Positions 1 through 10,427 of a stretch of 10,427 bases of DNA are shown in pieces. Position numbers and translations under genes: made by a program. Numbering within the stretch: the stretch's first letter is position 1; the number at the start of each line of letters is the position of its first letter. Origin of the DNA: Pseudobdellovibrionaceae bacterium (lineage in GTDB: Bacteria; Bdellovibrionota; Bdellovibrionia; Bdellovibrionales; Bdellovibrionaceae); assembly GCA_039810425.1 (NCBI GenBank), contig JBDHWW010000078.1, forward strand, positions 1 to 10,427, written 5' to 3'. The notes under the pieces are model-generated. The model did not search any database. It was not told the origin of the DNA and worked only from the letters and a program-made list of their open reading frames with translations.

Positions 1-82
1 GGCGGACCGCGCGCGCCGAGGACCAGAGGCGCATCGTCGCGCTTGAGTGGGCGGTTCAGGGACAGCCCTGGCCGGCAAGCGC

Positions 83-532
83 CTACGCGCTGAAGCGTTG
101 CGTGGTGAGATACGCGGGATGCAAACGCACATCGCCCAGCTTGAAAGCACAGCCAGCGGCGCACGGGCGGCGCTCGATGCTATGCGTCACGAACTCGCCG
201 GCATACTGCAATTCAATCGGTGAGCCGTTGCCCCATGCGCCGCCGTTGTATGTCATCACACAACCGTCTTGCCCCTTGAATTGACGAAGCGGATTCTGTT
301 GAAGCGGGCGCCCATCTGCGGCCTTCACCGCTGGGCTGTCAAGCCATGCCAGCGGGAAGAATCCGCCCAGCTTGTCAGACCATATCGCCCCTTCCTTCGT
401 CGGCTTCGGCGTGGATGCCTTCGCCACTTTCGTCACTTTCGTCACTGTGCGCCGTGTCGGAGTCTTTGACCACTGCGCCTTCACCGCTGCGATTTGCTCA
501 TCAGTCGGCTCGAATACCTTTACTGCGTCCAT
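83..532 (-). CDS. Hypothetical protein (149 aa, start MDAVKV)
   Basis: Same strand as the operon. ATG at 532 is preceded by SD-like AGGTG. No family recognised. Confidence 0.55.
   Translation of the reverse strand: MDAVKVFEPTDEQIAAVKAQWSKTPTRRTVTKVTKVAKASTPKPTKEGAIWSDKLGGFFPLAWLDSPAVKAADGRPLQQNPLRQFKGQDGCVMTYNGGAWGNGSPIELQYAGEFVTHSIERRPCAAGCAFKLGDVRLHPAYLTTQRFSA
420..446. repeat. Three tandem 9-bp repeats TTCG(C/T)CACT
   Basis: ttcgccact-ttcgtcact-ttcgtcact; encodes the VTKVTKVAK stretch of the 83..532 ORF. Confidence 0.75.
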
Positions 533-560
533 ACTGTCACCTACTCTCACGTAATCACGA

Positions 561-579
561 CACTAGACTTCGCTAGTGC
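561..579. promoter_or_regulatory. Palindrome CACTAG-N6-CTAGTG, copy 1 (operator or recombination-site candidate)
   Basis: cactagacttcgctagtgc, 18/19 identical to 3256-3274. Confidence 0.55.
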
Positions 580-661
580 CGATGGTCGCCAGCCGAAGCC
601 GGCGTTGTCACCTAACCTTTATCCATCTGCCGGCGCTGAAGACTTCTTCTTCAGGGCTGGC

Positions 662-805
662 AAGTGGGGCTTGTCTTGTCCGATGCTGTCGACCCCCTAT
701 AGGGGGTCGGACAGACAGACAATCGGACAGAACGACAATATGCCGGTTGTCTGTCCGATAACCCCACTTTTCGGACGGACAGACAATCGGACAACTCATC
801 GGACA
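662..805. other. Putative replication origin (palindrome plus TCGGACA iterons)
   Basis: Perfect 20-bp palindrome CGACCCCCTATAGGGGGTCG (690-709). TCGGACA at 707, 723, 787 and 799 with a variant at 771, and inverted copies at 677 and 752. A 22/23-bp direct repeat at 707-729 and 771-793. Lies immediately downstream of the helicase gene. Confidence 0.65.
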
Positions 806-826
806 GGCTCTTATGCTAGCCATGCC

Positions 827-2044
827 CTACTCTGCCTCCATCGGCAATTGCTCACCTGTCGACACGTTTGCCAGCCGAAGGTGTCCATCGGCCTCGGTCA
901 GACTGCCGGCGTCGATCATCTCGTTAATTGCTCGATAGACGGTGTCTCGTGCTGGCTCGAAGTCCTTACCGTCATACATGACTTGCAACTCATTCTTCAT
1001 CAGCATGTTCGCAACCTGCGCCCGCGTCTTCGCCGGCCTCACGTTCAGATTGCACCGCGTCAGGATGAACGTCTTGATTGTCTCGGTCTTCGTCGGCTTC
1101 TTGTCCGCCCCACCCATCTTTCGTGTCACGTCTTCGGATGTGTAGACGGCCTTGACGCCAATCTCCTTGCCGGCTTCGTTGACAACTGGCTCAAGGCTGA
1201 AGGTCGCGATGAATGGGATAAGCGGGGATGACTTCGCCTTCGTCAACGCGATCTTGACACCCTTCGCCAGCCCTTCTTCGCTCTCACCGCCGATGAGTTC
1301 AATCTGATGCTGCATTGCGGCTTTGATTGCCGACGAGCCGCGTGCGCCGCGCGTCTTGTCCTTGCCGGCGTGGTGAATGACGACAATCGTGCAGCTGGCT
1401 CGACGTGCAATGTCTTCGAGTGCGTTCATCACATGCTTCATTGCTTCGGTGTTTTCATCGACTAAGTGTGTCTTGCTCAGTGAGTCGACGAACAAAACTT
1501 CTATGCCGGCTTCTTTCACTGCCTCGATTACTTCGCTGCGCACCGCTTCATCAGTCAAGTCAAGTTGCCCCAAGTCGGACGACCACCACAGATTCGCATC
1601 TGCTTCGTCGTCAAGTTCATTGGGTGCGCCTACGTCTAGCTTGTTCATGCGATTCTGAAGCGTGGTGTAGTTGCCTTCCAAGTCGATATAGCCGACCTTG
1701 CGCTTCTGCAGCTGATACTTCCCTGCCCATACACCGCCGTATGACAACTTGCGCATCATGTCACCGACGCACCACGATTTGCCGGCGCCACTTTGCGCGA
1801 CGATTGCGGACACAAGGCCAACAGGCAACACGTCAGGAATAATCCACTCGATAGGCGGGCATTCCATTGCGCGAAGTGCCTTGTTGTCGATGAACCTGAT
1901 GCGGCGAAGCGGCTTGTCGCCTTCGTCCTGTCGCGGCTTCTCATCAACTGCCGGCGCCGCTGGCTTGTGTCCGTTCGTGCTGGGCTTCATGTGGTCGACG
2001 CTGAAGGTGTCAAGGAATGAAGGCTTAGTCTTTGTTGCGTTCAT
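827..2044 (-). CDS. AAA_25 / RepA-like (RecA-fold, SF4-type) replicative helicase
   Basis: IEWIIPDVLP motif, Walker A AQSGAGKS, YIDLEG, Walker B VLFVDS, VIHHAGK and RGSSAI motifs. ATGA overlap with the upstream primase gene. Confidence 0.88.
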   Translation of the reverse strand: MNATKTKPSFLDTFSVDHMKPSTNGHKPAAPAVDEKPRQDEGDKPLRRIRFIDNKALRAMECPPIEWIIPDVLPVGLVSAIVAQSGAGKSWCVGDMMRKLSYGGVWAGKYQLQKRKVGYIDLEGNYTTLQNRMNKLDVGAPNELDDEADANLWWSSDLGQLDLTDEAVRSEVIEAVKEAGIEVLFVDSLSKTHLVDENTEAMKHVMNALEDIARRASCTIVVIHHAGKDKTRGARGSSAIKAAMQHQIELIGGESEEGLAKGVKIALTKAKSSPLIPFIATFSLEPVVNEAGKEIGVKAVYTSEDVTRKMGGADKKPTKTETIKTFILTRCNLNVRPAKTRAQVANMLMKNELQVMYDGKDFEPARDTVYRAINEMIDAGSLTEADGHLRLANVSTGEQLPMEAE

Positions 2045-3156
2045 CGTGACACCCCCACCCGCTTCAGATAATCGCGTGATGCCTTCTGCGGCGTCACATT
2101 CACATTGCCGGCCTTCTGCGGCTTCGGCGTCAACTTCATTCCCATCTTCTCGGCCAGCGCCTTCACTGCGGCCTTCACATCTCCGCCGTATTCAAACTCA
2201 CACAGAAGATCGAACGGCTTGAATTGATACCGCTTCTCGCAAGTCTCATTCATCGGGTCATTCGCGCTGAAGGTATAAGCGTGGTCGCCGTCGAAGTAGC
2301 CGCTAATGCCGTCGCGTGGATTCTTGTCAGGTCGTGTGAAGTGGCGTCCATCTTTGGAGATGGTGTAGCCGTAAAACTCCATGACTTTGCGAAGATCTGT
2401 CGCCGCGTTGAATGCGTCGATTACGCTGTTGCCCTCATCGCCCTGCCCTGCTTTCATTTCGATGGGCTTCTGCTCGGCCTTCTTCGCCGGCTTCAAGTCG
2501 GCGCGGATGGCGTCTATCATCTGCTTTGCGTCGTAGTCGCTCGAGGGGGTGTGATCTGTTTCAATCACTGCCCGCATCAAGTCAAGATCATCGACGGTGA
2601 TTGTCGGCAGTGTCATGGTCGGCAATGCGTCTAGCTTGTAGGTATATGCGTTGCCAGTATGCACAGCGAAGCGTGGCGCACGATAGTAAATCTCGCGGGT
2701 GAATGTGAATTTGACTTGGTCGACTTCGCACGTCTTCACATTGAAGACGCCCATCGTGCGCGAGTGTGGCCGCTTCATGTGAACTTTGTCGTGGTCGCCG
2801 GCCAGCAGCATGTAGGCGCGAAGTCCTGAGCCGCTGGGCGTAATCTCAACATAGGGGTCGAACTTCATCAACATCCACAGCGCCACAGCGTCGATGACAC
2901 CCTGCCCTGCATTCAGACAGTCGTCAAGGTCGACTGCGACAAGGTTGCCGACTCTGTTCATGCGGACGCCAAGATAAGGCGTCGCCGGCTTCAACATCGC
3001 CTTCGCTTGTGCGAAGGTCTTCAAGGCGTCGTCACCATTCCAACCAGTAAGCGGGATGCCTTCTGCGTCGGATGGCTGCTTCATCTTATTGGCAATAAGC
3101 CAACACTTCGTCGCGCCAAGTAGCGCGACAATCGGGGAAACTTCTACGGTTTGCAT
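2041..3156 (-). CDS. Prim-Pol (AEP superfamily, NrS-1-like) primase-polymerase, 371 aa
   Basis: VAVDLDDCL (DxD), YVEITPSGSGLR and EIY...RF...TG motifs. The C-terminal IDAFN...GY...RP...FS..DP...PFDL...GGD...A region is typical of phage primases. SD GGGAG precedes ATG 3156. Confidence 0.8.
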   Translation of the reverse strand: MQTVEVSPIVALLGATKCWLIANKMKQPSDAEGIPLTGWNGDDALKTFAQAKAMLKPATPYLGVRMNRVGNLVAVDLDDCLNAGQGVIDAVALWMLMKFDPYVEITPSGSGLRAYMLLAGDHDKVHMKRPHSRTMGVFNVKTCEVDQVKFTFTREIYYRAPRFAVHTGNAYTYKLDALPTMTLPTITVDDLDLMRAVIETDHTPSSDYDAKQMIDAIRADLKPAKKAEQKPIEMKAGQGDEGNSVIDAFNAATDLRKVMEFYGYTISKDGRHFTRPDKNPRDGISGYFDGDHAYTFSANDPMNETCEKRYQFKPFDLLCEFEYGGDVKAAVKALAEKMGMKLTPKPQKAGNVNVTPQKASRDYLKRVGVSR

Positions 3157-3179
3157 ATCGAAACTCCCACATAAAAGGC

Positions 3180-3207
3180 TTGTTTCGACAGCACCGCGCG
3201 ATATAAT
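3180..3207 (+). promoter_or_regulatory. Sigma70-like promoter, antisense to the primase leader
   Basis: TTGTTT (3180-3185), N16, perfect TATAAT (3202-3207). Confidence 0.45.
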
Positions 3208-3212
3208 TGGGG

Positions 3213-3290
3213 TTGTCCAGACGCCCAAGCATCCGCCGATGCCGTCAATGCGCCCCACTAGACTTTGCTAGTGCGGGCGTTTTGCGTTTT
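3213..3290 (+). ncRNA. Candidate ~75-nt counter-transcript (antisense) RNA
   Basis: Bounded by the + strand promoter and a + strand intrinsic terminator, in the gap between an RHH gene and the primase gene. Confidence 0.4.
3251..3290 (+). terminator. Rho-independent terminator-like hairpin; contains copy 2 of CACTAG-N6-CTAGTG
   Basis: Stem CGCCCCACTAG / CTAGTG(C)GGGCG with a 6-nt loop, followed by TTTTGCGTTTT. Confidence 0.6.
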
Positions 3291-3563
3291 CTAGGCCATT
3301 GCAGCCTCACATTGTTTTGTCGTCTTCGTCATCTCGCCAAACAGATTCAACTGCGGGCGGATAATCTCATCGTCAAGGATGATTGCGCCAGTCGTCTCAA
3401 ATTTGCGAAGTGCAGTGAGCAGGACATGGCGCGTCAATTCGCCGTCAGACTTGCCAACCGCGTCGGCCACGACTGCCAGTCTCTTCGCTTCATCTTCGCT
3501 CAGCCGCATGATCTTTAGAACCCTGCGGGCGTCTTCGCCCTTCCGGTATTCACGCTTTGCCAT
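3291..3563 (-). CDS. Ribbon-helix-helix (CopG/MobC-like) DNA-binding protein, 90 aa
   Basis: IMRLSEDEAKRLAVVADAVGKSDGELTRHVL fits the RHH pattern. SD GAGGTG and its own promoter lie upstream. C-terminal QLNLF. Confidence 0.65.
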   Translation of the reverse strand: MAKREYRKGEDARRVLKIMRLSEDEAKRLAVVADAVGKSDGELTRHVLLTALRKFETTGAIILDDEIIRPQLNLFGEMTKTTKQCEAAMA

Positions 3564-3586
3564 TTTGCACCTCATCTATGTATAAC

Positions 3587-3614
3587 ATTTTACCACATGA
3601 ATGTATTAGCGCAA
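3587..3614 (-). promoter_or_regulatory. Extended -10 sigma70-like promoter for the RHH-primase-helicase operon
   Basis: TTGCGC-N16-TAAAAT with TGTGG directly upstream of the -10 (TGTGGTAAAAT). Confidence 0.6.
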
Positions 3615-3617
3615 AGG

Positions 3618-3812
3618 TCAAATGTCGCCCTTCCCTACGTCTTCTGCGGCCAACTCGGCCAGGTATCGCCCGCCAGCCTTGCCCTGCTTCTTAGCCTTCG
3701 CCTTCAACTTCTCCCACACCGTCTTCGGGACATACACGTCGACTCGCGCTGAGTCTTTTACGGGCGTCTCACGCTGCGGGCGTGGCGTCGTCTTAATCTG
3801 TCGCTTTGCCAT
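3618..3812 (-). CDS. Small ribbon-helix-helix-like protein, 64 aa
   Basis: RVDVYVPKTVWEKLKAKAKKQGKAGGRYLAELA has a strand-helix-G-helix pattern. SD AGGAG. Confidence 0.65.
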   Translation of the reverse strand: MAKRQIKTTPRPQRETPVKDSARVDVYVPKTVWEKLKAKAKKQGKAGGRYLAELAAEDVGKGDI

Positions 3813-3831
3813 AGTTAAATCTCCTATTTAT

Positions 3832-4208
3832 CCGTCTCACTTCGAGCCGGCTTTACCGTCTCGAATTGTCGTTCTAATCGTCGCAAATGAGACGCTTCAG
3901 CCGTCTCACTTGCCGTCTCGAATGAGACGCTTCGTCTGTCTCGAGCCGTCTCACCATCCGTCGCGCTGGGCGTCTCATTCGCGGGTGTCAACCGTCTCAC
4001 TATCCGTCTCACGGTGCGTCTCATTCACCGTCGCGCCGGCACTCGCGGCCAACCGTCTCACCGCTGCGCATGGCGTGAGACGCTTCAGCCGTCTCGCAAT
4101 GCGACGATGTGTCGTCACATCGTCTCACTTTGGCGTCTCGAAACAGGGTAGGGTGAGACGCATTCAGAACGTCTCACCCTACCACTTCCAACCGTCTCAA
4201 ATGAGACG
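3832..4208. repeat. Dense non-coding array of CGTCTC/GAGACG hexamers with nested palindromes
   Basis: Manual count gives 15 CGTCTC and 5 GAGACG in about 376 bp, plus CGTCGC variants. Perfect 14-bp stem at 4147-4160/4170-4183. A 20-bp direct repeat TGAGACGCTTCAGCCGTCTC at 3888 and 4076. Confidence 0.9.
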
Positions 4209-5414
4209 CTATTCGCCATCGTCGCCGGCCTCCGTTGACTGCGTCTTTTTGCGCCGGCGATATGCCTTTTGCTTGCATGACGATGAGCAGTAGTCTTGCT
4301 TCGGGTCGCCCACGAATTTCTTACCGCATTCAGCGCACGTCTGCTTCGTGTCTTTGTGAAGGTTGGCTGGGTCGCCCTTCGGTAACTTCGTTACGACTTT
4401 TGCCGGCTCACCGATGCGTCTCGCGGGCTGGGCTTCGTCGATCACTTCAGCGTCTTCGGCGTCCTTCGCCAGTCGTGGGGTGAGCGACTTACTGCCGGCC
4501 TTCTTGCCGCCGATAATCCAGTCGCGCTTACCGTCTCCATCAACGTCTTTGAAGTCGATGAATGACGCGACGATGTGAGCCGTGATTGCAGTGATGACAG
4601 ACAGCCCGATTGCAGACACATACACCGACTCGCCAATTTCGCCCAGCACGTCAACGATAGGGACGCGAATGCCGGCCAAGCTTGATACAGTTTCAACCGT
4701 CACCACCGTCAGAAATGCGCCGTAGGCAATGCAGAACGCCCGCCACATCCACGCATCGAATTCATCCTGTGCTTCGTTGGCCTTCGTCAATGACAGGTAA
4801 GCCCACACGAAGCACGTCTCAAGCACAAGGCCACAGATTGCGGCAAGCATCGGATTGATGCCGCGGCTCATGCCGAAGTAGGCTGATGCAATCGCGGAAG
4901 CCAGCACCGCCACGGCCTTCGCAATGAAGCCCACATACTTCGCCGCCGCCGCTGATGCGCTTTCATATTCGGTTGCGTCGCGCATCGTCAGCGGGATAAG
5001 AATGACGGGCACAAGGGCAAGCGCCGCAAGCAAGCCGGCCACAATCTGACCGATGCCACTTAGCGCATCGGGCACGGCCATAAGCCCGCCACGAAGCGCC
5101 GTATTCAATCCAACCAGTGTGAGCGTCACGCCAATCCACGCAATCAGGATGATTGCGCCGGCGCCCTTCGTCGGCATGTGGTTAGTCGTCAGCACGCGTC
5201 CCAGCGTCACCACGACTACACCGACAGACGCAATGACAGCCAGCCCAGCTTCAACCGCACCCGTATTGAGCCGGTCAGCAAATAGTGAGAAGACGCTATA
5301 GCAAGCGAATAGCACCACGGCCACGAATAGCGCAGCCACGGCCACCATTGACGCGCCACCGAAGCGGCTGAAGTCGAATGTTTGAACCTTTGTTTTTGTC
5401 TCAGTAGAATTCAT
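4209..5414 (-). CDS. Polytopic membrane protein (~8 TM) with a C-terminal Cys4 zinc finger, 401 aa
   Basis: About 8 hydrophobic segments, then DVDGDGKRD, a charged linker, and CAECGKKF...YCSSSCKQKAYRRRKK. SD GAGGTG precedes ATG 5414. Confidence 0.8.
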   Translation of the reverse strand: MNSTETKTKVQTFDFSRFGGASMVAVAALFVAVVLFACYSVFSLFADRLNTGAVEAGLAVIASVGVVVVTLGRVLTTNHMPTKGAGAIILIAWIGVTLTLVGLNTALRGGLMAVPDALSGIGQIVAGLLAALALVPVILIPLTMRDATEYESASAAAAKYVGFIAKAVAVLASAIASAYFGMSRGINPMLAAICGLVLETCFVWAYLSLTKANEAQDEFDAWMWRAFCIAYGAFLTVVTVETVSSLAGIRVPIVDVLGEIGESVYVSAIGLSVITAITAHIVASFIDFKDVDGDGKRDWIIGGKKAGSKSLTPRLAKDAEDAEVIDEAQPARRIGEPAKVVTKLPKGDPANLHKDTKQTCAECGKKFVGDPKQDYCSSSCKQKAYRRRKKTQSTEAGDDGE

Positions 5415-5435
5415 CTCGCACCTCATACGTGCATC

Positions 5436-5472
5436 GTTGCCCGCCAACTCTGCGAAGGGTGGGGCGGGCAAC
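5436..5472. promoter_or_regulatory. GC-rich hairpin upstream of the membrane-protein RBS (attenuator or processing site candidate)
   Basis: GTTGCCCGCC (5436-5445) / GGCGGGCAAC (5463-5472), a perfect 10-bp stem. Confidence 0.45.
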
Positions 5473-5493
5473 TTTGCGAATAAACCAACGCGC

Positions 5494-5703
5494 TTAGGCG
5501 TCGGCCTCGTTTACAAACTTCTTGCCCTTCGTCTTCAGCTTCAGCCTTCCCGCCCGCATTTCATCGCGGCCATGCCGTGCGAGTAGGGTGATGAGGCTTG
5601 AAAGCGTCGCGCCGTGCTTCGCGGCGATTGCGTCCAACTCAATCCATTCACTCTCGCGCAATGCCAAGCCTCTCGCGCTCACAGGGTTAATCCGCTTTGC
5701 CAT
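5494..5703 (-). CDS. Small ribbon-helix-helix-like protein (RHH_4-like), 69 aa
   Basis: GLALRESEWIELDAIAAKHGATLSSLITLLA. TGATG coupling to the upstream ORF. An alternative GTG start lies at 5706. Confidence 0.6.
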   Translation of the reverse strand: MAKRINPVSARGLALRESEWIELDAIAAKHGATLSSLITLLARHGRDEMRAGRLKLKTKGKKFVNEADA

Positions 5704-5909
5704 CACTTGCCTTCCTTCGCGGCGTTCTCCGCGTCAATCATCTTGCGAACCTTTGCGCGGTTTGCATCAGTGAACTCAAGCCCTTCACGATTGCAGCGGG
5801 CGTATTCTTCCTCGAAGCGTCGCAGTCTTTCAATGTCGGCTTGCTGGGCGGCTCTGTCTGTCGCTCTGATTGCGGCGCGTCGCTGCTTTGCTTTCGCTTT
5901 ATCTGCCAT
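5703..5909 (-). CDS. Hypothetical helical basic protein, 68 aa (MADKAKAK...)
   Basis: SD GGGAG before ATG 5909. Stop overlaps the next start. Confidence 0.6.
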   Translation of the reverse strand: MADKAKAKQRRAAIRATDRAAQQADIERLRRFEEEYARCNREGLEFTDANRAKVRKMIDAENAAKEGK

Positions 5910-5970
5910 CTGTAATCTCCCAAGCGCCGGCACATGAAACACTGCCACATGCCGGCGCTTAATCACATGC

Positions 5971-6630
5971 CTAATTGCCAGCGCCCGCGGCATCAATCTG
6001 TGCATCGTTCGCTACACATCGGCCATTGCGCCAATACTTCAACGGGCACGGCTGCACGCTCTCATCGACTGAAGGTGAGGCCAGGTCGAAGCCGGCCACG
6101 TCAGGCGTCGCAGTCACGACCACGACCACTTCACGCGTTACTTCAATCGGTTGATTGACGATGCGCGTGGCCTCGACCACGTAGGGCGTCGGAGTAATCG
6201 CGCCCGCGCCGGCCAGTGGGTGAGCCGTTGCCGTTGGGTATGTCGTGCCCAACGCTTCAGCCGTTGCCCGTGCGCTATTGACGCCATCGCTGCTACAGCC
6301 GGAAGCCATCAACAGCGCCACGATTGAAAGCGCAAGCGCGAAGATTGAAACGAAGCGACGATGTGATGCTGATGACTCAACAGCCACGACAGGATTCACC
6401 GCGAAGAATGCCAGCCAGTGATACAGCCACGAAGCCCAGCGGCGTCGGTGTTTTGCATCAGCCGCGAAGACGATATGGCAAAGTTGCCGGCGTGCCCGTG
6501 GGCTTGCCTTGTGATAGAGCCGTGTGAACTCACGCGCTTCATACGTGCCCACGCGTGGCTTCACGGCTTCACCCGATGCGCGAAGAATGGCGTCAAGCTT
6601 ATCGTCAGTCCATTGCGTGTTTGTCGTCAT
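5971..6630 (-). CDS. Membrane/lipoprotein-like hypothetical protein, 219 aa
   Basis: Basic N-terminus, internal TM helix ending in lipobox-like LMASGC (Cys112), T/P/V-rich linker (TPTP...EVTREVVVVVTATP), C-terminal Cys pair. ATGA overlap with the upstream ORF. Confidence 0.7.
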   Translation of the reverse strand: MTTNTQWTDDKLDAILRASGEAVKPRVGTYEAREFTRLYHKASPRARRQLCHIVFAADAKHRRRWASWLYHWLAFFAVNPVVAVESSASHRRFVSIFALALSIVALLMASGCSSDGVNSARATAEALGTTYPTATAHPLAGAGAITPTPYVVEATRIVNQPIEVTREVVVVVTATPDVAGFDLASPSVDESVQPCPLKYWRNGRCVANDAQIDAAGAGN

Positions 6631-6863
6631 GGCAACACCACCTTCGCTTCAACGTAAGCGGCGTTGCGGGCTGCGGCTAGTGCGGCGTTGCGCTTCACTG
6701 CGGCCTTATGCTGGGGAGATTGCAAGCGCCAATCCTTAGCGGCTCGTTTCTCTGCGACGTGTCGCTTCGTCCATCCTGACGCAAGCAACTCATCAACGCG
6801 CTTGAGGATCCACGCCTCACGCGCTGACAATGGAGTAGGGGAGTTAAGTTTTTCTGTCTTCAT
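6627..6863 (-). CDS. Hypothetical basic protein, 78 aa (MKTEKL...)
   Basis: SD GAGG before ATG 6863. First gene after the 7013-7040 promoter. Coupled to the next gene. Confidence 0.6.
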   Translation of the reverse strand: MKTEKLNSPTPLSAREAWILKRVDELLASGWTKRHVAEKRAAKDWRLQSPQHKAAVKRNAALAAARNAAYVEAKVVLP

Positions 6864-6907
6864 CTTGCGGCCTCTTCTACAGACCACCGATGAAAGAAAT
6901 GAGGAAA

Positions 6908-6927
6908 TGTAGAGGATAATTTCTACA
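6908..6927. promoter_or_regulatory. Inverted repeat TGTAGA-N8-TCTACA (operator candidate)
   Basis: tgtaga ggataatt tctaca in an AT-rich leader. Related sites lie at 9894-9907 and 10312-10330. Confidence 0.4.
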
Positions 6928-7012
6928 GGTCATCACTGCTTCTACCAGTGGTTGACTTAGTGGCTGATGGGTGGTTGTAACACCTGTCGGCCACGTCTCT
7001 TATACGCTAGGA

Positions 7013-7040
7013 ATTTTACCACATCACCGGAAATGTGCAA
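7013..7040 (-). promoter_or_regulatory. Extended -10 sigma70-like promoter for the accessory/membrane operon
   Basis: TTGCAC-N16-TAAAAT with the same TGTGGTAAAAT box. Confidence 0.6.
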
Positions 7041-7041
7041 G

Positions 7042-7677
7042 TCAGAATCCGTAGTGAAACTTGCGCATTTTGTCGGCCTTCCACACGGCCAGCGCCATCG
7101 CCAGAACCATGTCGTCATGACCATTCGCGCTTCGATTGCCATAGCTGGGCGCACCACTGCCGCTTATCTCTTCGTCGAAGTCCATCAACTCGCTTTCAAT
7201 CTGTCGCCAGTGTGGTATCTGTGTTGCGATCTTGAGCCGGCCACTTTCAAACGCGACGCGAAGCGGGCTGATAAGTTGAACCTTCGGTAAATAGGTGCGA
7301 CTGCCTTCGCTGCGATCTTGGCCGACGCCCGATGTGATGACAACTTCATCCATGCGAAGCCGCTGCGCACGAAGCAACTCGACGACTGCATTGCCAACAC
7401 CTGTCGCGTCGACGATGAGCATGTAATCGTGAATCACTTCTTTGCGCGGTATCTCTTTATCCATCGGCCAGTATTCTCGCTCGACGATTGCATCAGGAAG
7501 CCGGCGAATCAAGTCGCCTACATGCTGCGCCACTTTTGTGTAGGGCGTCCCAAGTGGGAAACGATCAACGTTATTAACTTCTATCGCGCCCTTCGGATTG
7601 TCGAAGTCGGTGCGCTGGGCAATGCACACGGCGCTATAGTCATTCGATTTACCCAAGTCAAGGCCAATGAAATACAT
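7042..7677 (-). CDS. Terminase large subunit C-terminal RNase H-like nuclease domain as a stand-alone gene
   Basis: YFIGLDLGKSNDYSA, IVDATGVG and HDDMVLAMALA are the acidic motifs of Terminase_6C-type nucleases. Own SD GGAGGA 9 nt before the ATG. Confidence 0.85.
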   Translation of the reverse strand: MYFIGLDLGKSNDYSAVCIAQRTDFDNPKGAIEVNNVDRFPLGTPYTKVAQHVGDLIRRLPDAIVEREYWPMDKEIPRKEVIHDYMLIVDATGVGNAVVELLRAQRLRMDEVVITSGVGQDRSEGSRTYLPKVQLISPLRVAFESGRLKIATQIPHWRQIESELMDFDEEISGSGAPSYGNRSANGHDDMVLAMALAVWKADKMRKFHYGF

Positions 7678-7683
7678 GATGGT

Positions 7684-8484
7684 TTATCCTCCAAAAAGCG
7701 GAATGAAGGGAGTGTCGCCGCTTAGGGCGTTCCTTACATCCTCGCTACGAAACACACTGCTAGTCGTATCGGTGAATTCACACAGATACTCGCTGCGATA
7801 CCATGCGTCACCTAATGCCAGCCGTTCTTCTGCTAAGAAGTCCGCACTGATGCGTGGGTTATCTGTCGCCTTCAGCGTCACGCGTCGCCACGTATCGCCA
7901 CCGTCACGCCATTCATCGTAAAAGTGCCCGCGCTGTCCCCACGGCGTAGACGCGAGAATGAGCCGGCCACCACTCACAGCCAGCATCGGGCGCACGGCCT
8001 TATACAACTCATCATCAACGCGGGCGGCTTCGTCTTCAATGAGCAAGTCAACAGCGGAGAATCCGCGAATGGTTGACTCCGAAGCCGGCAATGAGACGAT
8101 GCGTGAGCCGTTCGCAAATGTCGCGCTCAGTTTGTTGTCTTCCATCATCGCGGGCGGCGTCTTCATCTTGCCCAGCCAGCTCGAACATTTGCGGAATAAC
8201 TCTGACGACTGGCGAAGGGAAGGGGATACCAACAGCACCAACGCATTAGGATTGAACATGGCAGTGTGAACGGCCAACAGTGAAGCGATGGTTGACTTGC
8301 CTGATTGACGCGCACAGTTGAGCAACAGCCGCTTGCCTTCCCAGCGCATCACGGCCTCTTGCCATGCGTCAGGCTCGAAGCCCAGCGAACGCCCGAACGC
8401 CACCACATCAGCGGGCACTTCGTCGGCATTCTGCCGGCGTGCCAATAGCGCCTTGATTTCTTTAATGTCGCGTTCAATTGCCAC
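7684..8484 (-). CDS. Terminase large subunit N-terminal ATPase domain (Terminase_6-like)
   Basis: PDAWQ Q-motif, Walker A ARQSGKST, Walker B LLIEDEAA, coupling motif ASTPWG, and YRSEYLCEF. GTG start with SD AAGGAG. Confidence 0.9.
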   Translation of the reverse strand: MAIERDIKEIKALLARRQNADEVPADVVAFGRSLGFEPDAWQEAVMRWEGKRLLLNCARQSGKSTIASLLAVHTAMFNPNALVLLVSPSLRQSSELFRKCSSWLGKMKTPPAMMEDNKLSATFANGSRIVSLPASESTIRGFSAVDLLIEDEAARVDDELYKAVRPMLAVSGGRLILASTPWGQRGHFYDEWRDGGDTWRRVTLKATDNPRISADFLAEERLALGDAWYRSEYLCEFTDTTSSVFRSEDVRNALSGDTPFIPLFGG

Positions 8485-8893
8485 GGCTCAACATCTCCTT
8501 GATTGCGGCCACATCATCTTCAACCGTTGAAAGCCGGCGCACCGTATCGGCTGCATCAGTCAATGCCTTCGCCGCTTGAACTCTCACAGCCGGCGTCACG
8601 TCTTCATCTTGCGCAATGTCAATCAACACATTCGCGGCAACTTCCATCCCGTAGGCGTAGCGCGTCGCTGCATGGCGGATTTTGTCGCGTGCAGCATCGG
8701 CCACGGCTGCGGCAAAATGCGGCGTTTTGAGCCATCGGTGCAAAGTGTCATCACTCACGCCCACGGCCTTCGCCGCTTCGGTGAGCGATGGGTGAGTGAG
8801 TAGCGCGGCCACGGCTTGAACCTGCTTCGGCGTCAAGCCGGCCACGTCAACATCAGAGCCGGCCACAGCCAGCGTCTTATCAGTCTTCGCCAT
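8474..8893 (-). CDS. Putative terminase small subunit (N-terminal HTH), 139 aa
   Basis: LTPKQ...LL...SLTEAAKAVGVSDDTLHRWLK...F HTH followed by helical oligomerisation-like segments. Directly upstream of and overlapping TerL. SD AGGAG before ATG 8893. Confidence 0.72.
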   Translation of the reverse strand: MAKTDKTLAVAGSDVDVAGLTPKQVQAVAALLTHPSLTEAAKAVGVSDDTLHRWLKTPHFAAAVADAARDKIRHAATRYAYGMEVAANVLIDIAQDEDVTPAVRVQAAKALTDAADTVRRLSTVEDDVAAIKEMLSRGN

Positions 8894-9875
8894 TGTCATC
8901 ATCTCCTGAGTCATACGTCGCGGCCAATGCGTCACTAGCCGCGTTCAAGGCTTCGTTGGCTTCGCTTCGGTCATAGCGTTGCGTCGTTGTAATCGCTGCA
9001 TGGCCTAACATGCGCTGGGCAACATGAACGCCCTTCGCACGGATGACAACCGTGGCCGCGGTGCGCCTGAAGTCGTGCCATGTGATGTTTGCAATGCCGG
9101 CTTCGTTCGCACGCTTCGCCAGTATTTCATCGGCGCTGTTGACGGTCAGCGGCTTGTCAAGTGGAATGCCGGCGCGGTGCATCGGTGTAATCAACCATTC
9201 GCCGGCGCCGCGGAACTTCAGCCAGTCCTTCACGACCTTCCACAAGTCGCCAACAATGGCCGGCGTGGTGCGTTCTTTATTGCCTTTGCCAATGACGCGC
9301 ACTTGTGCGCCCTTGCCATCGGGAAGAAGAATCAAGTCAGGAAGGCGCATCTTCACAATCTCGCCGCGTCGCGCACCCGTGGCCGCTGCAATCGCAATGA
9401 GAGCCGCGTCACGCTTGCCCGCTGGGTGAGCGTCGCGCCGGCACACGTCAATCAGGCTTCGCACTTCAGCCGGCGTCAACTCACGGCCAGCTATCTCACG
9501 CGTGCCCGTGTCACGTAGGCGCTTCGCAGTGTCAAGCAATCGTTGGTAGGCGTCGGTTGTCATGTCGCCGGAAGCCCACGCGCTTCGCGCCGTGCCCGTC
9601 AACGCGGCCAATACTCGATTACGCTGGGCGGGCGCACCGTCAACGCGTGCCATGATTGCGGGAAGGTTAGCGGCGTCAAGCTTGCGCCAATCCACCGTCA
9701 GCCATGAATCGAAGCCCATTGCCTTCGCTACGACATTCAAGGCGCTGCGCTGCGTCTTCTTCGACAGGTCAGAGCGAAGGCTTGAGAGATAGACCACAGC
9801 CGGCTTGACTTCGGCTGTCATCTGCGCGGGCGTGTTGCCGGCGTCTTCGGGAGTGATAGGGATAAGGTTGCTCAT
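8880..9875 (-). CDS. Tyrosine recombinase / phage integrase family protein, 331 aa
   Basis: Catalytic set intact: TGARRGE (R), GKGNKER (K), HDFRR (HxxR), LGH, RYD (Y). Confidence 0.93.
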   Translation of the reverse strand: MSNLIPITPEDAGNTPAQMTAEVKPAVVYLSSLRSDLSKKTQRSALNVVAKAMGFDSWLTVDWRKLDAANLPAIMARVDGAPAQRNRVLAALTGTARSAWASGDMTTDAYQRLLDTAKRLRDTGTREIAGRELTPAEVRSLIDVCRRDAHPAGKRDAALIAIAAATGARRGEIVKMRLPDLILLPDGKGAQVRVIGKGNKERTTPAIVGDLWKVVKDWLKFRGAGEWLITPMHRAGIPLDKPLTVNSADEILAKRANEAGIANITWHDFRRTAATVVIRAKGVHVAQRMLGHAAITTTQRYDRSEANEALNAASDALAATYDSGDDDNGED

Positions 9876-9912
9876 AGTCTAGGATTGCTAAAAGTGTAAT
9901 TCTACACGGTTG

Positions 9913-9941
9913 ATTTTACCACACCTAGAACGCCACGGGAA
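9913..9941 (-). promoter_or_regulatory. Extended -10 promoter for the integrase-terminase operon
   Basis: TGTGGTAAAAT at 9923-9913 with a weak -35 (TTCCCG, N17). The inverted repeat GTGTA-N4-TACAC (9894-9907) lies over the expected start site. Confidence 0.55.
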
Positions 9942-10162
9942 GCCCAGCCAGCGCCCGATTAAACGGGCAAAACGGGCAAGCCCAGCGCCACGAAGCCGCA
10001 CACGGCCTCACAGGAAGCCCGTAGCGGCGTTTTGCCGGCCACATAGGTATGAGACAGCCTACAGATGCAAACAGCGGCCTTCCTGCGCGTCCTGACGCGT
10101 CGCGCCCAGCGCCCAGCGGCACGCATAAGCGGACACGGGCACTTGAGCCGGCTGAAGGCGTC

Positions 10163-10272
10163 AGGGGAACTTTGGTAACTTTGGTAACTTTTTCCACCGC
10201 TAAAAAAATCGCATCTGTCTTCTGAAAAATTTTTGCGTGCCAAAAAGTTCCGAAAGTTACCAAAGTTCCCCT
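10163..10272. repeat. 31-bp inverted repeat built of three 9-bp AAAGTTACC-like units per arm, around a 48-bp AT-rich spacer
   Basis: Arms at 10163-10193 and 10242-10272 match at 29/31. The spacer contains A and T tracts. Confidence 0.88.
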
Positions 10273-10399
10273 ATTTTGAGCGTCTTATGTCGTCTTTGTC
10301 GTTGTTTGCGTTGTAGGAATTACACCTACACTAAGCGGACACGGCTTCTTCCCGTGGCCGGCTGGCGGCGTTGGTGCGAGCCATGCGCGAGGAGAGACC

Positions 10400-10427
10400 A
10401 TGAGCAAGCGAGTGATCATCATCACTG
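10400..10427 (+). CDS. 5' end of a probable host short-chain dehydrogenase/reductase (partial)
   Basis: SD GAGGAG, then MSKRVIIIT(G), resembling the start of the SDR TGxxxGxG Rossmann motif. Only 9 codons are visible. Confidence 0.45.

Follow-up and report, generated by a model that had tools for sequence, protein, structure and literature searches.

The stretch of DNA analysed here (the window: 10,427 bp, the entire contig C78 of bin G000, deposited as JBDHWW010000078.1 in the Pseudobdellovibrionaceae assembly GCA_039810425.1) holds an element that carries its own phage-type packaging genes—a small terminase (TerS) and a large terminase (TerL) split over two genes. The main genes are all encoded on the minus strand and fall into three blocks, with the 11-mer TGTGGTAAAAT at the head of each; this 11-mer occurs exactly three times against 0.07 copies expected and precedes the integrase gene int and the blocks beginning at 6863 and 3563, in keeping with the shared promoters of the original prediction. 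Block one comprises a tyrosine recombinase, TerS and the ATPase and nuclease halves of TerL; block two, four small open reading frames (ORFs), a lipoprotein-like gene, a gene with seven transmembrane helices (7-TM), an array of 20 GAGACG sites and a ribbon-helix-helix (RHH) gene; and block three, the likely primase and the AAA_25 helicase, preceded by a small regulator and trailed by origin-like repeats and one ORF without a family match. The motif and the packaging genes are placed as follows.

9913..9923, 7013–7023 and 3587–3597, minus strand: extended −10-like motif TGTGGTAAAAT (sequence count)
8880..9875, minus strand: tyrosine recombinase (integrase or resolvase), 331 aa (PF00589, E 4e-25)
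8474..8899, minus strand: small terminase TerS, 141 aa, with a helix-turn-helix (HTH) and long helices (PHROG terS matches, E 2e-6, and fold searches)
7684..8484, minus strand: ATPase half of TerL, 266 aa (PF03237, E 3e-13; phrog_7579, E 2e-57)
7042..7677, minus strand: RNase H-type nuclease half of TerL, 211 aa (PF17289, E 2.5e-6; phrog_27743, E 6e-35)

These four genes had been described as one coupled operon, and so they are arranged: int and terS overlap by 20 nt, terS and the ATPase gene by 11 nt, and 6 nt separate the ATPase and nuclease genes. For the TerS model (pLDDT 84) the best PDB rows were phBC6A51 (2ao9) and the PaP3/NV1 small terminases, none at E < 0.001; among viral structures ten rows reached E < 0.001, two of them named TerS. 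In the ATPase the Walker A and B, IRG and STP motifs are all intact; it can be aligned to the solved TerL ATPases of P74-26 type and of T4 (E 9e-17 to 6e-15), and Walker A, Walker B and motif III are invariant or almost so across 37 aligned ATPase sequences. The acidic residues D7, D90 and D188/D189 of the nuclease are invariant in all 11 aligned sequences, and PHROGs holds a family, its context unnamed, for each TerL half. In complex predictions, residues 242–264 of the ATPase (its C-terminal arm) contact the nuclease with an ipSAE of 0.78 against 0.28 for the best control; runs share at least 90% of contacts, partner pLDDT is at least 79, and of 157 solved pairs 116 attain the mark used, as do 2 of 215 mismatched ones. 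The halves are therefore predicted to rebuild one TerL enzyme via this arm, which we count as plausibility only because split-gene halves pass through their likeness to solved TerL.

Portal, capsid, protease, tail and relaxase families, already noted as unrecognisable here, were absent from the window ORFs scanned (17 against Pfam and 16 against PHROGs), and the 17 gave no Pfam match to a relaxase, coupling protein or TraB translocase, both P-loop proteins being already assigned. Five minus-strand frames reach at least 230 codons; four are assigned, the fifth encodes the 7-TM protein, and no unassigned window frame is long enough for a portal or an HK97 capsid. Head-tail connectors likewise had no match among the small window ORFs in the Pfam and PHROGs scans, an exclusion weaker than that of the portal by size.

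Contigs of runs X1, X2 and X3, which belong to one study, join position 10427 to position 1 through 229 further letters, with contig depths at the join of 13.2, 12.2 and 7.6 against about 4–10 across the element; X1 is possibly the source of the window contig. The same join occurs in X15, a run of another study, so that a look-up of the junction, as originally suggested, finds the window ends joined in contigs of two studies. A single contig of a third study, at depth 3.4, shows a variant in which 123 different letters link 10316 to 69. Uncovered parts in X5, X8, X10, X12 and X15 were not counted as absence. The element is a complete unit of 10,656 bp and, since this unit is closed with 229 bases outside the window, a portal or capsid has no room. 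Family scans, frame lengths and closure together rule out a capsid or portal hidden in the window, including in the small ORFs once suggested as hiding places.

Relatives of the stand-alone ATPase number at least 7861, the matches among 8000 scored candidates of 146–466 aa. We compared the best 80 of 412 genome, the best 80 of 258 IMG/VR and the best 80 of at least 465 metagenome loci (numbered with the prefix L), together with four plasmids. A short stand-alone ATPase ORF is present in 222 of 245 loci, and 176 of the 180 split loci with sufficient flank have a separate nuclease ORF. Among informative loci—those that show a portal, a boundary or no less than 5 kb of downstream sequence, which leaves out 33 genome, 60 metagenome and 23 IMG/VR loci as too short—a portal is present in 1 of 47 from genomes, 3 of 20 from metagenomes and 48 of 57 from IMG/VR, four of the counted portals being assigned via the Atlas result for L091, by cluster or by position. 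The chromosomal count is the fairer because IMG/VR selects for virion genes; chromosomal homologues normally lack the portal and capsid genes that would follow TerL if the window were a deletion remnant.

Twenty-seven bounded elements measure 8.4–16.5 kb (median 11.2 kb): 18 are flanked by direct repeats (14 overlapping a tRNA called by ARAGORN), six are closed contigs and three are plasmids. No portal matched among the 150 ORFs scanned in them, with large alternative frames added to the scans (shadow frames in high-GC loci) and 11 overlapping L006/L088 frames excluded. A major capsid gene is found in 1 of the 27 and a tape measure in 4, and 20 are without a co-oriented downstream non-core ORF of at least 340 aa. 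Catalytic motifs are kept in 75–77 of 77 portal-less ATPases and 68–72 of 75 nucleases, and ATPase dN/dS is 0.06–0.32 in 13 of 15 pairs (two saturated), indicating purifying selection. With 46 of 47 informative chromosomal relatives and all 27 bounded elements lacking a detectable portal and the terminase under purifying selection, the absence is not a one-off deletion. The window has the content of this group—TerS, stand-alone ATPase and nuclease in one run, recombinase, primase and no portal—and this content recurs in the 27 bounded elements, none of them with a portal match.

Two points were absent from the original prediction: split TerL also occurs in true phages, and many relatives have a tail tape-measure gene. 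Such genes, found in 8 of 47 genome loci, tie the portal-less group to tailed particles; L263, for example, a 13.1-kb element flanked by two copies of tRNA-Met, has a tape measure, TerS and ATPase. Eleven loci have two or three tandem nuclease genes, a twelfth listed case being a terminal repeat. Within the group, tandem nuclease genes stand beside one ATPase in L044 (10752-12739), L028, L085, L131, L195 and L216, and the nuclease lies upstream in L033, L034 and L216. Two elements of about 9 kb (L096:7516-8775 and L135:9708-10910) combine a split terminase with a major capsid gene and no portal match; collagen-like or tail-fibre-like genes lie in or near portal-less elements at L063:8578-9354 and L018:12282-13253; and short tandem repeats, likely integrase arm sites, lie just within both att sites of L020, L052, L179, L180 and L209. 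Small Salinibacter and Rhodococcus plasmids (L003:7132-9018, L004:9641-11467 and L005) carry terminase and tape-measure genes and are candidate cultured satellites. An IMG/VR search with the window nuclease returned nothing.

Members of the group occur in Bacillota, Chloroflexota, Pseudomonadota, Acidobacteriota, Myxococcota and methanogenic archaea. Cultured ones include Salinibacter ruber M8 (with pSR11), Methylocystis sp. JAN1, Thermovorax subterraneus and Methanospirillum purgamenti. We found no description of such elements in the literature, although supplements and subscription papers, which lay outside the search, could hold prior mention, and the phrase ‘split terminase’ did not occur in the papers listed by one of the searches on the topic. 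The group of portal-less, capsid-less split-terminase elements is apparently widespread and undescribed.

The window element fails the definition of phage-inducible chromosomal islands (PICIs) as well as that of capsid-forming PICIs (cf-PICIs), as had been foreseen. PICIs, including the Staphylococcus aureus pathogenicity islands (SaPIs), resemble it in having about 10 kb, an integrase, small regulators, a primase-helicase and TerS, and no tail or holin (PMC10085698). The corresponding features in the window are an integrase (PF00589), a primase-replicase module in which the primase match is weak, and TerS. Unlike a PICI, the window has its own TerL, with ATPase and nuclease genes intact, instead of relying on that of a helper; no AlpA, MerR, Stl or capsid-morphogenesis gene was found, the order is int-ter-accessory-rep and this copy has no tRNA target. 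For a PICI-type regulator the window offers weak RHH and HTH matches alone, from a Pfam scan rather than SatelliteFinder profiles. TerL is listed as cf-PICI-specific (PMC10085698), and cf-PICIs are described as sharing TerS, TerL, integrase and primase with the window (PMC10085698, PMC10690885); unlike them, the window is without capsid, protease, portal, head-tail connectors and HNH, and its TerL is split into two genes related to Thermus/Meiothermus phage and P74-26-type TerL.

Other small elements match in part. The EPIPs of Mycolicibacterium are 11-kb satellites with TerS and, like many window relatives, a tape measure; they have a serine integrase, head-tail genes and no TerL listed, whereas the window has a tyrosine recombinase and no match to a tape measure or head-tail adaptor (PMC12822802). 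PICI-like tycheposons, which were found in capsids, resemble the window as small integrative elements with their own replication module and one packaging gene set, but that set is terS or a capsid gene, not TerL (10.1101/2020.12.28.424599). Salinibacter pSR11 and pSR14 and a 16-kb Streptomyces plasmid, complete records treated as plasmids, have a primase, a gene in the TerS position, a split TerL and no portal match, as in the window. Terminases on small plasmids have been noted, in passages that propose no satellite role (PMC6060240).

Split-TerL tailed phages (L090, L091, L094, L098 and part of L103-L167, all from IMG/VR) carry the same TerS-ATPase-nuclease cassette but, unlike the window, have portal and head genes after the nuclease and different replication genes. 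Of 44 long-flanked IMG/VR loci, 19 have a portal after the split TerL; this position beside a portal in true phages marks the split form as a working phage motor. We built a quick tree of 140 ATPases; its smallest starred set to include both the window and a locus of known context comprises, besides seven proteins whose context is unknown, four phages with a portal. The HTH of the window TerS resembles the gene preceding TerL in phages L091 and L098, and the L091 portal was identified by Atlas. Because the nearest context-bearing relatives of the ATPase are phages and its TerS resembles theirs, the terminase appears to be drawn from phages, likely in an acquisition separate from that of the tRNA-integrated Bacillota members, and L091/L098-type phages are candidate helpers. 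The replicon of the window is unlike that of L091/L098. In L091 (11509-13308), L094 and L098, a 600-aa portal family that escapes Pfam and PHROGs is followed by 2000-aa unknown proteins; these are likely podovirus-like phages.

The remaining genes and repeats of the window are as follows.

10163..10272: 43-bp inverted repeat (I1) of 9-mer tandem units, 84% complementary
6627..6863, minus strand: 78-aa protein, first gene past the second promoter (family scans, frame analysis)
5971..6630, minus strand: accessory lipoprotein-like protein of 219 aa with a hydrophobic stretch, a lipobox-like Cys and a tail rich in Thr and Val (one predicted TM)
5703..5909, minus strand: 68-aa charged helical protein (ORF list, frame analysis)
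5494..5703, minus strand: 69-aa likely RHH regulator (RHH_4, E 0.048, weak)
4209..5414, minus strand: 401-aa accessory membrane protein with about 7 TM helices and a C-terminal CxxC...CxxxC finger
3829..4208: 20 arrayed GAGACG/CGTCTC sites, some in each orientation, immediately upstream of the RHH gene
3618..3812, minus strand: 64-aa CopG-like RHH protein (RHH_5, E 0.0015)
3291..3563, minus strand: 90-aa likely DNA-binding protein, first gene past the third promoter (weak HTH matches)
2041..3156, minus strand: likely primase-polymerase, 371 aa, or 405 aa from an upstream GTG (PHROG primase matches)
827..2044, minus strand: AAA_25 helicase of RepA/SF4-like type, 405 aa, its gene coupled to that of the primase (PF13481, E 3e-26, firm)
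707..806: direct repeats (family D5) behind the helicase gene (repeat finding)
83..532, minus strand: 149-aa protein with no Pfam or PHROG family match

Of the predicted Prim-Pol/helicase replicon, the helicase stands firmly and the primase call is weak (PHROG matches at E 6e-6 to 7e-3, no Pfam match). Repeats 707..806 are likely origin iterons, by analogy with the primase-replicase-origin order of PICIs. GAGACG/CGTCTC matches number 27 in the window against 8.1 expected, with 20 falling within 3833-4208, and the array is likely a protein-binding one (operator, centromere-like or packaging (pac) region); the inverted repeat likely provides recombinase arm or regulator sites. Scans of the window for sigma-70 promoters and terminators stayed at chance level.

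The membrane proteins predicted earlier are present, as just two genes, one 7-TM and one lipoprotein-like. Relatives of the 7-TM protein comprise 11 close and 76 representative ones, with a homologue in Chloroflexota, and the lipoprotein-like protein has 16 homologues, several limited to its lipoprotein part of 130–150 aa; the longest contig common to homologues of both is 36,484 bp. No Pfam family matched over 54 homologues of the 7-TM protein, and Atlas gave no match; its model (low confidence, pLDDT 54) had no Foldseek match and resembled nothing beyond generic helical bundles (Z at most 8), and an IMG/VR search with its alignment returned nothing. A DUF2637/Spd-like transfer protein was considered and rejected, as it shows no similarity to the Streptomyces plasmid DUF2637 gene. 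The two genes are phage-type accessory cargo; we would guess that they serve exclusion of other phages.

The proposed ends of the element, 69 and 10362, coincide with a direct repeat.

69..76: 8-bp direct repeat TGGCCGGC, left end; other variants instead have theirs at a second GCCGGC, 197-202
10355..10362: 8-bp direct repeat TGGCCGGC, right end of the element proper; variants diverge nearby
10363..10427, plus strand: start of a higher-GC segment that runs on via the 229 missing bases into 1-81

The higher-GC segment from 10363 is either the target site or a captured piece. The piece from 10356 across the join to 81 also occurs in a second, high-GC context in two studies, with loose ends at 10356 and 81. 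GCCGGC occurs 49 times in the window, in all frames, against 5.8 expected from shuffles and 12.5 from an order-2 model. Variants start at 69 or 197 and depart from the reference at 81, 204, 10343, 10345 and 10356; five of these seven end points have a GCCGGC no more than 5 nt away, where chance would put 7.5% of positions so close, and at the other two the diverged sequence has GCCGGC a few bases further on. Points 584, 10316 and 10399 do not match this pattern. As a lead, we infer that the recombinase may cross over at GCCGGC, the junction then consisting of pieces of target sites. A search of IMG/VR with a 26-mer of the junction piece found nothing. The excess of GCCGGC, about fourfold over the order-2 model, accompanies depletion of GCGCGC and CGCGCG and is possibly a host methylation signature; relatives L239-L246 are enriched in CTCGAG rather than GCCGGC. 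Higher-GC pieces between GCCGGC sites (10363-10427 and 1-202) vary among variants and recur in other contexts, and a plus-strand gene begins at 10401 and likely extends across the join.

Bin G000 was rejected as the host: GC is 0.57 in the contig and 0.49 in G000, the tetranucleotide distance is 0.037 against at most 0.023 across 189 host windows, GCCGGC is not enriched in G000, and the ATPase is present in 0 of 60 G000 relatives. The window contig is probably mis-binned. Contigs C82-C148 of the bin include many short ones of 32–34% or 57–74% GC in a bin of 49% GC, and the bin contains foreign DNA. The nearest relatives of the window recombinase (34–40% identity) lie in L048, L089, L170 and Chloroflexota genomes; because these matches and a 7-TM homologue occur in Chloroflexota, that phylum is the likely host. 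The Thr/Val-rich tail of the lipoprotein-like protein presumably resembles Anaerolineae proteins. Among 401 genomes of the class of G061 there was no close relative, and six carry a distant ATPase. The runs holding the element come from activated sludge and wastewater.

On balance we favour reading the element as a phage satellite that docks its own motor onto the empty heads of a helper phage, a possibility raised in the original prediction and consistent with all tests run. On helper infection the element would excise, or would already be free, and would replicate from its own origin; TerS would bind a site on the element, the nuclease would cut the concatemer and a ring of the ATPase would pump element DNA through the helper’s portal. 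Several points weigh against this. TerL normally functions with its cognate portal only, so a foreign motor must match the helper closely. The particle, the helper, the pac site, the portal contact and packaging itself are all putative, and the contig join is compatible alike with a free circle, a tandem or a repeat-flanked integrated copy. Profile scans overlooked the true portal of L091, later found by Atlas, so some ‘no portal’ labels may be wrong, and large unassigned ORFs remain in L088 and L063. The portal label changes 18 times on the ATPase tree (seven changes forced by starred branches), which also fits repeated loss from prophages.

Alternatively, but in our judgement unlikely, the terminase mainly interferes with phages, blocking helper portals or cutting phage DNA and so protecting the host, and the element uses helper TerL or hardly moves. 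Packaging interference is reported as a satellite strategy (10.1101/2024.04.22.590561), and the 11 loci with tandem nuclease genes go beyond packaging need; yet the ATPase motor motifs are kept and selected, which a blocker would not need, and the tape-measure and occasional capsid genes suggest particle building. Less credible still is a terminase working only intracellularly, cutting plasmid-like replication concatemers to unit length with no role in transfer. Some members are indeed plasmids with ParA (pSR11, pSR14, L089), and the window, which does not use a tRNA site, has a recombinase similar to the one in L089, but a recombinase alone suffices for multimer resolution, those plasmids also have tape-measure genes and most bounded members are tRNA-integrated.

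We regard a decayed prophage, its late genes lost by deletion, as very improbable. The ATPase’s nearest relatives of known context are portal-bearing phages and the accessory membrane genes are shared with a phage, but the unit is closed in two studies, all ORFs are intact, as the original prediction had argued, close relatives at 74–89% identity sit on contigs of at most 10.8 kb, the replicon differs from that of L091/L098, and the same content recurs under purifying selection in the 27 bounded elements. The other proposal of that prediction, a capsid-free DNA transfer machine of terminase and membrane proteins, is scarcely tenable: these genes are co-oriented in the window, and the 7-TM and lipoprotein genes accompany the terminase in close variants (the 9267-bp contig of P0001, P0123 and P0229), but membrane-based transfer is unsupported because none of the 244 other terminase loci has a 7-TM family member and one homologue has RecT, DnaB and tail genes around it in the early region of a tailed-phage contig, while the membrane genes have a separate promoter and just 3 of 27 bounded elements have an ORF with at least three predicted TM segments, one being a tape measure.

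Beyond the helper-head satellite we favour, a wider and distinctly tentative picture is that satellites across domains repeatedly took a two-chain TerL from phages and run it on proheads that are not their own, with the nuclease exchanged or duplicated and a tape measure gained to suit different helpers; in the window lineage, the recombinase would act at the frequent GCCGGC, landing at many sites and carrying site pieces of 100–400 bp into phage heads. Current satellite models couple TerL with portal and capsid, and a large TerL-only group is missed by them and read as prophage debris or plasmid. If helper-head packaging holds, the motor would work on the portal of another genome and the rules of fit between TerL and portal would become testable, while the natural division of ATPase and nuclease would offer a clean system for studying the coordination of cutting and pumping. 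Few satellites are known in the host phyla of the group or in methanogenic archaea.

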